Virus record (IMG/VR): IMGVR_UViG_3300021387_000074
Length of the DNA: 64,000 bases
DNA from: a virus
Lineage: Duplodnaviria > Heunggongvirae > Uroviricota > Caudoviricetes
Reading direction: 5' to 3' (one strand)
The notes below the pieces were generated by a model that was not told the origin of the DNA, made no database searches, and was given only the letters and a program-made list of their open reading frames with translations. The translations under genes were made by a program, and so were the position numbers. Numbering within the stretch: the first letter of the stretch is position 1; every line of letters begins with the position of its first letter. Shown in pieces: positions 7,031-44,129 of this stretch.

Positions 7031-7690
7031 CTAGTCATTTAAGAATTTTAATGCTTCACCTTTAACAAGCCAAGCAACTCCGCAGCCACTTAAAGCAATA
7101 AACTCCGCAATCCAAGCAGTATTTTTTGGCATCGGTATAAAGTGCTCTAATACTAAAAGTATGCAAGCAACGATAACCGTGCTAGCACAAATTCTATAAA
7201 TTATATTTCTCTTTTTCTTTCCAGGAGTTACTTCATTTCCACCTAACGTAAACAAAAACATTTCATTAATGAAAAATCCCAAGAAAGCCATCAAAGCAAG
7301 AATATTATGAATATTTCCAGATACTTCTGGAGTTAACCCAAATAACCCAACCCTTGCTCCAATCTCTGCCATCCCTTCGTTATGGCAAGGAACAAGCAGT
7401 AAGCCAAAAAGCCCTATGCCACTTATCAAGTTTACTACTCTGTCTCTCCAATCATATCCTGCATAAGTGCAGAAAAAGAAAGCAGATATAGAAATTATAG
7501 ATGCCATAATCATCATCGAGTTAGCATAATAAGTATCACTTATTGAATACCACCAACCTTCTGGGTTGTAATTCCAACCAATTAGACCAAACAAAATTGA
7601 CAAAGGTGCAAGAGCAAGAACCATAACGCCCATTACTCTTCTCTGCCAAATATACTGATTTTTTTCAATATTACTTCGCATCGCTTTCAC
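7031..7690 (-). CDS. Polytopic membrane protein (DUF998-like, ~6 TM)
   Basis: Multiple hydrophobic helices, SISDTYY, H-N-I-L-A, AE-F-I-A-L, WLVKG motifs. Confidence 0.7.
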   Translation of the reverse strand: MKAMRSNIEKNQYIWQRRVMGVMVLALAPLSILFGLIGWNYNPEGWWYSISDTYYANSMMIMASIISISAFFFCTYAGYDWRDRVVNLISGIGLFGLLLVPCHNEGMAEIGARVGLFGLTPEVSGNIHNILALMAFLGFFINEMFLFTLGGNEVTPGKKKRNIIYRICASTVIVACILLVLEHFIPMPKNTAWIAEFIALSGCGVAWLVKGEALKFLND

Positions 7691-8471
7691 TCTCCTTGTG
7701 CATCAATTCTGTATTGTATTCTAATTTTCTCTTTTTTTCTTGTAAATCTTTTTTTGCTTTATCCTCGATTTTAGAATTTGTAGCTGCATTAATTCCCCAA
7801 ATTTCTTCAGATTCTTTAATTCTCTCAAGTTCTTCAGGTGTCTTATCCAAATCATAAATTACTGTCAAATCTTTGAAATAAGCAACTGATACTGGCCAAT
7901 CACACTTTGTTCTAACTTCTATTGCTCTAATATAAAGATTAGAAGCTTCGTCACCATAAGCTGGTCCTGGCTCTTTATCTCTCTTAGCTGGATCAGAAAT
8001 ATAAGCTGGATTTTCCCAAGTCAATTCACCTTCACCAATAAAAGCGATATTCTTTTTAAACTTATAAGGCTTTCCAACAAAATCTGTTTTAGACCTTGAA
8101 AGGTAAATTGTTACTTCGTCTGCTTTTAATATACCCTCGGCGGTTAGTTTAATACTTTTAATTTCTCCAACATTTTCAATAAAACCAAGTTCTTTGTTTG
8201 GTTCATTCAACGAAGGAGAATAAGGTGGTACAATCTTATAACTAACATAGCCATCTCTCTTTGGAAGTTCTACGCAAACTCCTAAACCTTTGTCTGTCAT
8301 CTTTATCTGAGTTCTTGCAGATAAAGAGCTCTGTGGGATTACTTCCCAATTCTCAAAAGAATACTCTTCAACGCTTGTAGAGCCAAGAACATCTGCTTTA
8401 AACAAAACAGTTTCTTCGGCAAAAAGTGAACAAGCAAAAAGCATTGCAATTACTAAAAAAATCTTCTTCAT
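7671..8471 (-). CDS. flaA: Spirochaete flagellar filament outer-layer (sheath) protein FlaA homologue
   Basis: Sec signal peptide (…SLFA/EE); colinear motifs resembling Treponema FlaA: WEV..QSS, LGVCVELP, GFIENVGEIKSI, ELTWENPAYISD, YFKDLTVIYD, EEIWGI. Confidence 0.85.
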   Translation of the reverse strand: MKKIFLVIAMLFACSLFAEETVLFKADVLGSTSVEEYSFENWEVIPQSSLSARTQIKMTDKGLGVCVELPKRDGYVSYKIVPPYSPSLNEPNKELGFIENVGEIKSIKLTAEGILKADEVTIYLSRSKTDFVGKPYKFKKNIAFIGEGELTWENPAYISDPAKRDKEPGPAYGDEASNLYIRAIEVRTKCDWPVSVAYFKDLTVIYDLDKTPEELERIKESEEIWGINAATNSKIEDKAKKDLQEKKRKLEYNTELMHKESESDAK

Positions 8472-8513
8472 TATTATTCCTTAGAGGGCTTTCGCCCTCT
8501 ATTCTTAACTCAC

Positions 8514-10103
8514 TTAGTAAGCTGGTGTATCTTTGTCTTCATCAACTCTGATGTTTGCTCCACTTGTAGCAAGCATAGTTCCAGCAATAGAAACAGAATT
8601 TGAAATAGCTTCTGTCTGAACAAGAGTTGGCTCAATAATACCTGCCTTGAATGGATCAACATACTCATCTGTTTTAGCGTTATAAGCCAAACCACTTCTC
8701 ACACATTCAGCAAGAACAACATCTCCGTTAATACCTGCGTTTTCTGCGATTTGTTTAAGTGGCTTAGTAAGAGCCTTCATAAGGATCTCTCCTCCGCGTC
8801 TTTCTCCTTCTGTTGGATACTTAGTATAATCAACATTCCAATCAAGGAAATAATTAATTCCACCACCTGGAGAAATTCCTTCCTTAAGAGCGGCTTTTAC
8901 TGCACAAACTGCATCAATAAGTCTATCTTTAATTTCGTAAGCCTCAACATCTGTTGAAGCACCAACTTTAATAGTTGCTGCAGAACCCGTTAATCTAGCA
9001 ATACGTTTTTCGAGATTTTTCTTATCAACTTCATTTTCTGTATTTTCTTTCTGCTGTTTAAGAGTTTTAATATAATCTTCAACAACTTCTTTCTTTCCAG
9101 CCCCACCAATAATTGATGTTTCTGTTTTTTTGGCTTTAACTGTCTTTGCTTCACCTAAATATGCAGCCCCGCAATTTTCAAGTTCCAAGCCTGCAGCACT
9201 TGTAATAAGAGTTGCTCCAGTCAATGTAGAAATATCATTCAGCCAATTCAATTTTGACTGTCCGTAAGAAGGACATTTTACTGCTGCAACATTGATATTT
9301 CCACTGATTATATTAAGAACGATAACGTTCAATGCTTCACCTGCGAGTTCATCGCAAATAATAAGCAATGGTTTCTTCTGTTTAATAGACTCTTCAAGGT
9401 ATGGAGTAACTTCATCAATTCTTGTAATCTTTTTATCAGAAACAAGAATCAAAGCGTCTTCAAAGTTTACTTCATTCTTCTCTTTATCGTTAACAAAATA
9501 AGAAGACAGCCATCCTTGATCAAATGTAAGTCCAGTTGTTTCCTCAATTTCCGTGTCAATACCTTTTGTTGCTTCAACATTAATAATACTTTCTGCGCTT
9601 ACACCTGCAACTTTAAAAGCTTTATCAACAAGTTCACCATATTTCTCTTCGTTGTTTGCTGAAATTGTAGCAACCTTTTTTATATCTTCTGCCTTAACTG
9701 GTAAGGATTGACTTTTTATAAGTCTAACAACTTCAGCTGCAGCCTTATCCATACCTCTTTTAAGTTCGATTGGTTTATAACCAGCCTCAACTGCTTTATA
9801 ACCTTCTCTAACAAGTTCATATGTAAGAACAACAGAAGTAGAAGTTCCATCACCAGCAGTATCGTTTGTTCTCAAAGCTGCTTCTCTTCCGAGCTGTGCT
9901 CCTGAGTTTTCAACTGGGTCTGTAAGTTCTATATCTTTAGCAACCGAAACACCATCTTTTGTTATAACTGGTGCTCTCATTCCCGCCATAGCAAAAAAAC
10001 GTCCACAAGGTCCAAGTGTAGAACCAACAGCTTTTGCTATTTTTTCTATACCAGCCAACCATCTTTTTCTTAAATCTTCATCAAAATATATTTCTTTCTT
10101 CAT
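8514..10103 (-). CDS. groEL: Phage-encoded group I chaperonin GroEL
   Basis: TLGP, ITKDGVSVAK, AGDGTST, ATISANN, LEKRIARL, GGG motifs; 529 aa; no GGM tail. Confidence 0.95.
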   Translation of the reverse strand: MKKEIYFDEDLRKRWLAGIEKIAKAVGSTLGPCGRFFAMAGMRAPVITKDGVSVAKDIELTDPVENSGAQLGREAALRTNDTAGDGTSTSVVLTYELVREGYKAVEAGYKPIELKRGMDKAAAEVVRLIKSQSLPVKAEDIKKVATISANNEEKYGELVDKAFKVAGVSAESIINVEATKGIDTEIEETTGLTFDQGWLSSYFVNDKEKNEVNFEDALILVSDKKITRIDEVTPYLEESIKQKKPLLIICDELAGEALNVIVLNIISGNINVAAVKCPSYGQSKLNWLNDISTLTGATLITSAAGLELENCGAAYLGEAKTVKAKKTETSIIGGAGKKEVVEDYIKTLKQQKENTENEVDKKNLEKRIARLTGSAATIKVGASTDVEAYEIKDRLIDAVCAVKAALKEGISPGGGINYFLDWNVDYTKYPTEGERRGGEILMKALTKPLKQIAENAGINGDVVLAECVRSGLAYNAKTDEYVDPFKAGIIEPTLVQTEAISNSVSIAGTMLATSGANIRVDEDKDTPAY

Positions 10104-10111
10104 AATACACC

Positions 10112-10149
10112 ATTATAAAAAATTAATGGGCTTTTGTCAAGCCCATTAT
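10112..10149 (-). promoter_or_regulatory. Sigma70 promoter TTGACA-17-TATAAT for groEL-flaA, embedded in an inverted repeat
   Basis: Minus: TTGACAAAAGCCCATTAATTTTTTATAAT; IR TAATGGGCTT/AAGCCCATTA. Confidence 0.8.
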
Positions 10150-10154
10150 AACTA

Positions 10155-43110: not shown

Positions 43111-43142
43111 AACCCCGTTCGAAAGAGCGGGGTTATTTTTTT
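43111..43142 (+). terminator. MCP terminator
   Basis: AACCCCG-TTCGAAAGAG-CGGGGTT then T-run. Confidence 0.85.
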
Positions 43143-43149
43143 GACAAAT

Positions 43150-43180
43150 AAAAAAGGCTACCAAATTTGGTAGCCTTTTT
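43150..43180. terminator. Bidirectional terminator (flaB 3' end)
   Basis: AAAAAGGCTACCAAATTTGGTAGCCTTTTT perfect palindrome. Confidence 0.85.
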
Positions 43181-43225
43181 ACTTTTCTCCTTTCTATGGC
43201 GAGAACCCCTCCGAAGTCGCCGTTT

Positions 43226-44074
43226 CTATTTTAACAACGCTAATACATTTTGTGATTGTGAGTTTGCTTGACTAAGCATAGCGACAGAAGCCTGAGAAAG
43301 AACCTGCTGCTTTGTATATTCTACCATTTCAGTAGCCATATCAGCATCACGAATTCTTGATTCTGCAGCTTGTGTGTTTTCAGCTGCTACATTAATTCCT
43401 TTCTGTGCCATCTCCATTCTGTTCTGATAAGCACCAAGATCTGCTCTCTGCTTATTAACATTTTTCAAAGCTTCATCAAGTGTGGCAATTGTTGTATTTG
43501 CCTCATCAGGTGATGAAATAGAAATCTGATTGTCTTCACCCTGGATACCTTTCAGCCCAAGAGCAGAAGCAGTCATTGTTCCTATATATGCTCTGATATT
43601 CTGATCTGCGTTTGCACCAACCTGGAATTGCATTACAGTATCAGAATCTTTTGAGAATCTTCCAGTTAATAAATTCATTCCGTTAAACTGTGCTGAAGAA
43701 GCAATTCTGTCAACTTCTGCTACAAGCTGAGAAACTTCTACCTGAATCTGCATTCTATCTTCATCTGAGTATACACCATTTGAAGCCTGAACTGCAAGTT
43801 CACGAATTCTCTGAAGAACATCAGTTGTTTCTGCTAGATAACCTTCTGCTACCTGAACAAAAGAAACAGCATCTCCAATGTTTCTTGAAGCCTGATTAAG
43901 ACCACGAATTTGAGATCTCATCTTTTCAGATACAGCCAAGCCAGATGCATCATCACCTGCTTTGTTAATTCTTTCACCACTTGAAAGCTTTGCCATTGAA
44001 TTCTGTAAGTTTGCCGCATTAATTCCTTCTTGGCGACTAGCAAACAAACTTGCCATATTGTGATTTATTACCAT
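43226..44074 (-). CDS. flaB: Spirochaete-type periplasmic flagellar core flagellin FlaB
   Basis: [89 protein letters not shown]; 282 aa (D0-D1 only). Confidence 0.97.
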
Positions 44075-44101
44075 ATACTACCCCTCCTTGGGTATAAAAA
44101 A

Positions 44102-44129
44102 TTATCGGCAGATTTCTCTGCCGACTTTA
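44102..44129 (-). promoter_or_regulatory. Sigma28 (FliA/SigD) promoter of flaB
   Basis: Minus TAAA-gtcggcagagaaatct(16)-GCCGATAA, 27 nt upstream of the ATG; RBS AAGGAGG; overlaps hairpin TCGGCAGA-GAAA-TCTGCCGA. Confidence 0.88.

Follow-up and report, generated by a model that had tools for sequence, protein, structure and literature searches.

Phages with genes for a treponemal flagellin and a filament sheath protein: a recurrent, selected pair predicted to act on the periplasmic flagellum of the host

Why would a phage carry genes for both the core and the sheath of a flagellar filament that lies in the periplasm of a spirochete? The question is raised by a 64,000-nucleotide stretch from the IMG/VR virus record IMGVR_UViG_3300021387_000074 (Caudoviricetes), analysed over its whole length and called the window here, in which a flagellin gene, flaB, and a sheath gene, flaA, lie 35 kb apart, each intact and each among phage genes. 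An earlier note on this DNA, made from the letters alone, had described this arrangement, which our analysis confirmed, and had proposed that the phage remodels or sustains the host filament during infection. Of that proposal, the gene identities, their phage context, recurrence, selection and presence in RNA assemblies are borne out, and the action on the filament itself is a prediction. The two genes, their families, their conservation, the selection acting on them and their occurrence in RNA assemblies are established by the data below, and the pair is a recurrent, selected phage system, a variant of phage flagellar remodelling with a predicted mechanism.

The product of flaB consists of D0 and D1 domains only, within the class of FlaB proteins of ~280–286 residues, and scores 146.7 bits against Flagellin_N and 90.5 bits against Flagellin_C. 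Its top match in the PDB is a T. denticola flagellin of 285 residues, the length of FlaB3, and the nearest host flagellin is 77% identical. In a quick tree of 85 rows, the 12 phage FlaBs formed one clade (Shimodaira–Hasegawa-like approximate likelihood ratio test, SH-aLRT, 95) nested in the host paralogue group that stands second in the flaB1-flaB3 tandem (48 rows, SH-aLRT 100), and a more careful tree of 13 rows separated the eight phage rows from five host rows with support of 100/98. Judged by sequence, the phage protein is a FlaB3-type treponemal flagellin. Using the packing and glycosylation residues named in PMC13439194, we found the core-packing residues Q88, R91, E92 and D106 and the FlaB3 glycosylation positions S115, S126, T137 and S/T166 kept in all nine treponemal-type rows of alignment A2; the FlaB3 O-glycosylation residues S115, S126, T137 and T167 are present in phage FlaB, for which glycosylation itself is only predicted. 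The retention of packing and glycosylation positions favours polymerisation over a role as a pure decoy.

The sheath gene is more diverged. FlaA scores 38.7 bits against PF04620 (cut-off 25), and a profile of the seven phage homologues matches the T. denticola major FlaA (9pim) at E 5e-20 and also 10pl. Phage FlaA matches major FlaA at E 1e-21 to 1e-24 vs 4e-4 for FlaA1/FlaA2. The earlier identification of a FlaA homologue with a signal peptide holds. An AlphaFold (AF2) model (predicted local distance difference test, pLDDT, 82) had a FlaA1 structure as its top match with two aligners, in Foldseek at E 9e-10 and in VIA-align at Z 13.9 (root-mean-square deviation 3.5, 165 residues aligned; next match Z 10.8); ranks 2–50 of VIA-align were mostly carbohydrate-binding modules, and a fold search of BFVD returned generic beta-sandwiches only. 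The signal-peptide pattern is alike in all 20 aligned phage and host FlaAs, as assessed by eye and hydropathy with no dedicated predictor. Phage FlaA is ~95 residues shorter than the FlaA of rumen hosts: two segments near the N terminus, a loop of 25 residues and the tail at the C terminus are missing from the phage proteins alike. Phage and host proteins are ~25–28% identical. When 12 lattice and core residues of T. denticola FlaA were mapped onto the window protein through an alignment at this 25–28% identity, the core contact S86 (window S49) and the invariant R239 had kept equivalents, D293 appeared as E, and R104, K109, D220, D271, K280, R292, R306, K317 and E328 were changed or deleted. 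With most lattice residues changed, phage FlaA is unlikely to be a like-for-like spare of the host sheath protein. A complex prediction with two FlaA copies scored 0.04 against a mark of 0.42, a value that is uninformative either way.

The window contains no N letters, and both open reading frames (ORFs) are uninterrupted. Among the 91 window ORFs scanned, those that could be annotated serve phage replication, head or nucleotide functions, with the Gp23 capsid, gp32, UvsX, DnaB, SbcC/D and NrdD genes around flaA and flaB, and no flagellar family was found besides these two. T4-like phages in the Straboviridae sense have the family B polymerase gp43 and an ATP-dependent ligase. The earlier label 'T4-like' holds only loosely: the window agrees with it in its capsid family, gp32 and UvsX and departs from it in its DnaE-type polymerase, its NAD-dependent ligase and the sequence of its capsid, which is only 24–27% identical to cultured phages in the 15 hits listed. 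A separate assembly, L014, repeats the gene order uvsX-groEL-flaA-membrane gene with a FlaA that is 91% identical, and contigs spanning flaB and its upstream genes came from an independent DNA run (X3) and two RNA runs (X16 and X17), so that the check for a chimera gave no sign of one. The capsid-side junction of flaB is less well backed: a single X3 contig spans it, and that contig skips 79 nt. Part of the region 40500-46500 is present in 20 sequencing runs from 12 studies, the labelled ones being sheep, bovine or unspecified gut, and the G+C content at third codon positions (GC3) is phage-typical, 0.23 in both genes.

The pair recurs. Sixteen IMG/VR records carry a treponemal-type flaB, two of them as partial genes, and flaA accompanies it in 10 of the 16 and in 9 of the 10 longer than 50 kb; five of the six records without flaA are fragments of 12–36 kb. 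After near-duplicates were merged, seven lineages, the window included, carried both genes. In five of these, flaA lies downstream of flaB by 0.1, 0.5, 0.65, 1.9 and 3.0 kb, and in G003 the distance is ~51 kb; in the five host genomes searched, flaA and flaB are on separate contigs or far apart.

Judged from substitution patterns, both genes are under purifying selection rather than neutral drift. The ratio of replacement to synonymous rates (dN/dS) of flaA was 0.084 and 0.059, lowest or nearly lowest among the neighbouring genes (groEL 0.29 and gp32 0.27, both for one genome pair that also gave a flaA value, and UvsX 0.088), and the flaA genes of L007 and L008 differ by 23 synonymous and no replacement changes. 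For flaB, the ratio was 0.07–0.19 in five whole-gene pairs with differences, some with saturated dS.

In a FastTree phylogeny, all seven phage FlaAs fell into a 32-row group of short proteins with support of 97, the seven being the members with a known context. A search of 301 Treponemataceae genomes at E 1e-25 did not recover the short type; its controls gave 5e-65 for G003 and 1e-17 to 1e-18 for host FlaA. Compared with spirochaete proteins, phage FlaB forms a clade inside the FlaB3-type host group and phage FlaA resembles major FlaA. The window FlaB clusters with those of G001 and G002, and its FlaA with the type of G004. Phage-side clades for both proteins, the proximity of 0.1–3 kb in five of seven lineages and this conflict between the trees replace the suggested 'two separately placed acquisitions' by another history: the most fitting view is that flaA and flaB have long belonged to a gene pool of phages and have been reshuffled between them.

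The carriers are deeply different jumbo phages of 190–390 kb. The capsid, polymerase and helicase of the window have no BLASTP match at 1e-5 in G001–G004, and these four genomes have 54–164 proteins in common pairwise at a median identity of 34–41%. G003, complete at 301 kb, has tail sheath and baseplate genes and direct terminal repeats; the phage identity of G002–G004 is given by the IMG/VR classing and by PHROG tail, sheath and baseplate matches, with Terminase_6N and Portal_T4 above cut-off in none of seven records. Tyrosine integrase (PF00589) was absent from seven records in a search that did not include serine recombinases. In G003, a scan of 262 of the 385 ORFs turned up no further flagellar family. 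Families of CsrA, FliW and FliS had no match in 5, 7 and 5 phage records, respectively, so any such control would be that of the host. The host is likely a rumen Treponema and the lifestyle likely lytic. Phages of Treponema are barely characterised (PMC11144348). A search for a CRISPR link, with two 20-kb window stretches against 401 Treponemataceae genomes and two candidates scored per genome, gave short or gene-level matches only, and none of the 5 loci checked among 30 returned had a repeat array.

Two further observations concern the carriers. A GGDEF diguanylate cyclase is encoded in three of five carriers, both complete ones among them (G003:287870-288313, that is L116:7852-8871; G004:4296-4721; G001:237179-237589), a count that covers carriers only; the N-terminal half of the G003 protein is hydrophobic. 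A sigma factor of G001 was considered as FliA and rejected, as RpoD/RpoH models score higher and only the superfamily cut-off was passed among the 25 rows listed.

Are the genes transcribed? In rumen RNA assemblies, flaB is covered in two studies and flaA in two, in runs including X16 and X17, which supports the presence of both genes at the RNA level. RNA contigs of two studies cross the sigma28/terminator site of flaB; as they run through the terminator-like hairpin, read-through or DNA carry-over is possible. In run X16, a 96%-identical flaA contig reached a depth of 227.6 between contigs of 7.0 and 7.6, with 14.1 for the flaB contig, 39 for gp32 and 54.6 for the capsid contig, although contig depth cannot rank genes. 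As run X19 gave only a short flaA contig of depth 4, an abundant RNA of its own for flaA is a single-run hint; X11, an RNA run that may come from the source sample of the window, had no flaA contig among the matches listed. The X16 contig over flaA (window 7789-8459) has 36 unrelated letters in place of the gene start, an artefact or a variant.

The window (64 kb), G003 (301 kb) and G004 (189 kb) each have a single match to the strict sigma28 pattern, and all three matches lie upstream of flaB, the one in G004 being separated from the gene by an insert; in G001 and G002, the strict matches lie elsewhere and not at flaB. A sigma28-type site stands directly before 5 of the 12 treponemal-type phage flaB genes, and a sixth is displaced by the insert. 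In T. denticola, flaB2 alone is sigma28-driven and flaB1, flaB3 and flaA are sigma70-driven (PMC9481697). Given that the phage gene is of the flaB3 type, the sigma28 site would be a rewiring. Thus, a putative sigma28 promoter on flaB stands, its pattern being unique in the window, and the claim that the phage mirrors the promoter logic of the host does not. That the site is a mere by-product of the terminator was rejected, as relatives retain the motif without the hairpin. The overlap of terminator and promoter recurs in the window at 10148 and 6717; at 10124-10148, 6692-6717 and 44104-44125, terminator hairpins are formed on the promoter hexamers of the next unit.

Paired hairpins with GGA loops are the pattern recognised by CsrA. 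They occur in 5 of the 12 treponemal-type phage flaB leaders vs 1 of 937 phage genes, that one being a flaB; the window leader has only a weak GGA hairpin, over the ribosome site. In host loci L022–L101, a long hairpin with the loop CA(A/T/C)GA(T/A/G)G lies ~40 nt before the start of flaB3-type genes in most of the 16 examined, the loop being a variant of the CsrA motif without GGA.

For flaA, the suggested parallel with the host, a position downstream of the sigma70 promoter of groEL, is weak: the window has 11 near-consensus sigma70 sites, this promoter among them, a strong hairpin and a recurrent AGTTAA motif separate groEL from flaA, and groEL is not adjacent to flaA in other lineages. The groEL mRNA is predicted to be nearly leaderless. 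The hairpin before flaA, with a GAAA loop, has a z-score of -5.2 and no U-tract, and returns in L014 with changed letters; AGTTAA is found upstream of window genes 7 times in sense vs once in antisense orientation. Motif and hairpin may possibly act as a promoter of flaA itself and a 5' stabiliser.

How, then, might the proteins act? We lean, by somewhat more than an even chance, towards a reading in which phage FlaB and FlaA are fed into the host filament through host export and keep or change motility. FlaB would be transcribed from the sigma28-type promoter and by read-through from upstream, under the CsrA-FliW feedback of the host, and host FliS and the flagellar export gate would bring it to the filament tip. 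There it would be glycosylated by host enzymes and lengthen the distal, normally unsheathed segment of the FlaB3 type; the distal unsheathed filament of T. denticola is formed by FlaB3 (PMC13439194). FlaA would be exported by Sec and coat the FlaB core in a phage-type lattice unlike the host sheath. The phage would bring the bulk consumable subunits only and depend on the host for motor, hook, chaperones and export, and the likely benefit would be an infected cell that still swims, or swims otherwise, during the shut-down of host synthesis. Export, incorporation, host, lifestyle and benefit are what we infer.

Several points weigh against this reading. Incorporation, export and phenotype are predictions, as are the lytic lifestyle and the host, for which no CRISPR spacer was found. 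Seven of the 12 phage flaB genes have no sigma28 site directly upstream, and the pattern was tuned on these sequences. Phage FlaB has a D1 loop of 9 residues vs 14 and lacks the N147 loop that touches FlaA in FlaB1. The flaB gene of the 386-kb G001 (L004:10001-10848) is frameshifted by one base near codon 44, through assembly error or decay. G011 (220 kb, 70% complete) carries flaB with no flaA match, a real or apparent exception. The two trees conflict in the approximately unbiased (AU) test (p ≤1e-4 in 4/4 tests of swapped groupings, the groups having been picked after earlier trees were seen and long branches being present), so that tight co-evolution of FlaA and FlaB as a pair appears to be absent. 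The loss or change of most mapped lattice residues and of the C-terminal tail, at the low identity given above, may put co-assembly of phage FlaA with the host sheath in doubt. Finally, the GGDEF cyclases of three carriers fit slowed as well as sustained motility.

The closest known system is that of the Enterobacter prophage FRphi, whose flagellin replaces that of the host (10.1101/2025.07.22.666180). In both, a phage would supply flagellin (FliC_P, with TldR, in FRphi) for the host filament and leave export and motor to the host. FRphi, a temperate siphovirus, targets external flagella and has an RNA-guided TldR that silences host fliC, whereas the system described here has carriers of 190–390 kb, no tyrosine integrase found, a periplasmic filament and an added, Sec-exported sheath subunit. 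The defining trait of FRphi, a nuclease-dead TnpB with a guide RNA beside the flagellin gene, was not found: there is no TnpB match among the 91 window ORFs and no TnpB or TldR in the complete G003, and the three TnpB proteins of G004 retain their D-E-D motifs by eye, which led us to reject a TldR reading for the sequences covered. Relative to the T. denticola filament, with its FlaB1/2/3 core and major FlaA, the phage FlaB groups with the FlaB3 type and keeps its glycosylation positions, and the phage FlaA derives from major FlaA rather than FlaA1/FlaA2; the phage differs in its shortened FlaA with mostly changed lattice contacts, in a flaB3-type gene behind a sigma28-type site, and in having no FlaA1, FlaA2 or other flagellar genes found. 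Lytic phages carry genes for host functions, cyanophage psbA being an example. By analogy, a high-demand subunit of a large host machine would be placed on the phage and the remainder left to the host; unlike with psbA, that machine would serve motility, and the far divergence of one subunit from its host counterpart speaks for remodelling rather more than for supply of an equivalent part.

We found no published account of a phage FlaA/FlaB pair in a search that did not extend to most subscription papers or to supplements; gene tables of rumen viromes could list such genes. The part of PMC10607447 consulted mentions, for a gut phage, just a 'putative flagellin-like protein', and PMC9230969, considered as a prior description, is unrelated in the part available. 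In INPHARED, 12 records match phage flagellin, the best places at <60% identity and unannotated, and no record matches host FlaA.

A bolder form of the favoured reading, which we hold tentatively and at somewhat less than even chances, is that a widespread guild of deeply different gut-spirochete jumbo phages reshuffles a two-gene kit that rebuilds the hidden flagellum. With the same reserve, the kit would combine a distal-type flagellin under host sigma28 and CsrA-FliW with a minimal sheath that coats the bare distal filament. If so, lytic viruses would change how an organelle of the periplasm works mechanically and direct the swimming of the infected cell. Known phage flagellins belong to temperate phages and exposed flagella, with obvious immunity or receptor motives; here the target is periplasmic and an additional subunit leaves the cytoplasm by its own route, so that another selective pressure must maintain the genes. 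Should the proteins enter the filament, a lytic virus would control the movement of its host, which bears on how phages are dispersed in the rumen. Minimised by nature, the FlaA family of these phages also provides a direct test of which parts of the spirochete sheath, solved only recently, are needed for assembly and curvature, and flaA and flaB serve as a host marker for many unassigned jumbo genomes.

The same proteins could instead stop the cell. Phage flagellin in the cytoplasm would bind FliW, and the CsrA so released would silence mRNAs, that of host flagellin among them. The truncated FlaA would act on the host sheath as a poison or a cap, and the energy saved by a cell that no longer swims would go to the virus. 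In Borrelia, cytoplasmic FlaB sequesters FliW and releases CsrA (PMC12327847), and single sheath or contact mutants weaken T. denticola motility (PMC13439194); phage FlaA has lost many sheath-lattice residues, and G001, G003 and G004 encode GGDEF cyclases. The product of these enzymes, cyclic di-GMP, often slows motility. Yet a decoy would not be expected to come with self-limiting hairpins of the CsrA type, a sigma28 promoter and the residues for glycosylation and polymerisation, nor would a poison need a whole FlaA fold and C-terminal helix maintained at a dN/dS <0.1. We regard this alternative as unlikely, if still deserving of attention.

Flagella are the receptor of many jumbo phages, and treponemal flagella can protrude. 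Were the distal, unsheathed filament to be exposed and used as a receptor by these phages, its replacement or coating would shut out superinfecting competitors. The flagellin lends itself to this explanation as it is of the type that forms the unsheathed distal segment, and FlaA would suit it too, since its great variety from phage to phage and its reshuffling resemble those of an arms race. Periplasmic flagella normally lie beneath the outer membrane, however, and the surface positions of FlaB are conserved rather than diversified. The phrase 'protruding periplasmic flagella' was not met in the literature listed, and the FRphi study (10.1101/2025.07.22.666180) sought phage resistance and found none. 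Masking of a receptor thus strikes us as improbable.

We give slightly less credence still to the idea that the two proteins serve separate ends, FlaB topping up the filament or regulating and FlaA acting outside the flagellum as a periplasmic glycan-binding protein or envelope modifier. It would accommodate the beta-sandwich of FlaA, which resembles carbohydrate-binding modules, the incongruent trees, the missing flaA match in G011 and the much deeper flaA than flaB contig in X16, depths being no ranking of genes. It is hard to reconcile with flaA lying within 3 kb of flaB in five of seven lineages and accompanying it in nine of ten long records, a linkage that holds in phages although the host genes are apart. 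A last reading, misassembly or a neutral piece of host DNA gained by recent transduction, could cite the frameshift in G001 and the absence of the window's full genome from the comparison; it is scarcely credible given junctions repeated by independent contigs and runs, a short FlaA type not found in the host genomes searched, strong purifying selection and phage-like GC3.

The features of the window are collected in Table 1.

Table 1. Positions of flaA, flaB and associated features in the window
Feature	Coordinates	Strand	Basis or remark
flaB, 282-aa FlaB3-type treponemal flagellin	43226-44074	-	Pfam, PDB match, tree, short D1 loop
flaA-like sheath gene, 266 aa, shortened phage-type major FlaA	7671-8471	-	Pfam, profile, fold, alignment
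Predicted Sec signal peptide of FlaA, residues 1-18, MKK + hydrophobic core + LFA/EE (cleavage at the slash)	8418-8471	-	by eye and hydropathy
sigma28-like promoter TAAA-N16-GCCGATAA	44102-44129	-	pattern search; overlapped by terminator-like hairpin 44125-44104
Small hairpin with AAGGAG ribosome site in loop, predicted CsrA site	44079-44094	-	-6.4 kcal/mol, z only -1.0
Bidirectional terminator-like hairpin after flaB	43151-43180	.	fold search
AGTTAA motif (8510-8505) and GAAA-loop hairpin (8501-8482) just before flaA ribosome site	8482-8510	-	fold and motif count
Phage groEL	8514-10103	-	upstream neighbour of flaA in this lineage only
TTGACA-17-TATAAT site before groEL (10140-10112) with overlapping terminator hairpin	10112-10148	-	sequence search
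129-aa signal-peptide protein upstream of flaB	44131-44520	-	shares RNA contigs with flaB; homologues in 2 other carriers
Gp23-family major capsid protein	41575-43089	+	PF07068 188.9 bits, phrog_138; convergent with flaB
Scaffold-like ORF	40760-41557	+	label inferred from position alone

The insert that separates the sigma28 site from flaB in L008 (L008:8790-10000) consists of a piece that matches TnpB from this same phage, at the 3' end of that gene, with IS605-like hairpins flanking the piece, followed by a 286-aa ORF that looks HNH-like by eye and has no Pfam match. The L008 flaB is intact, with its first 85 codons 71% identical to L007 and the remainder 97.5%. Three large phage records (L011, L180 and L181) carry a non-treponemal flagellin, 46–48% identical to that of the window, with CAAGGATG hairpins in the leader and, in the L180 and L181 records, no flaA match; this is a second, independent phage flagellin system.

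Searches of Rfam gave no match across five sources. The Atlas neighbours of the 129-aa protein upstream of flaB are mainly hypothetical proteins of Spirochaetota. A 513-aa protein of no assigned function (window 14269-15810), placed in Atlas among viral hypothetical clusters only, has homologues of 25–40% identity in all four other carrier genomes examined, and is thus common to the carriers although capsid and polymerase are not. The DnaE-type polymerase is split into two overlapping ORFs (window 35400-39057), the first with a stretch of ~100 residues between matched parts that is possibly an intein, and NrdD (60965-63499) shows a gap resembling that of the DnaE ORF.

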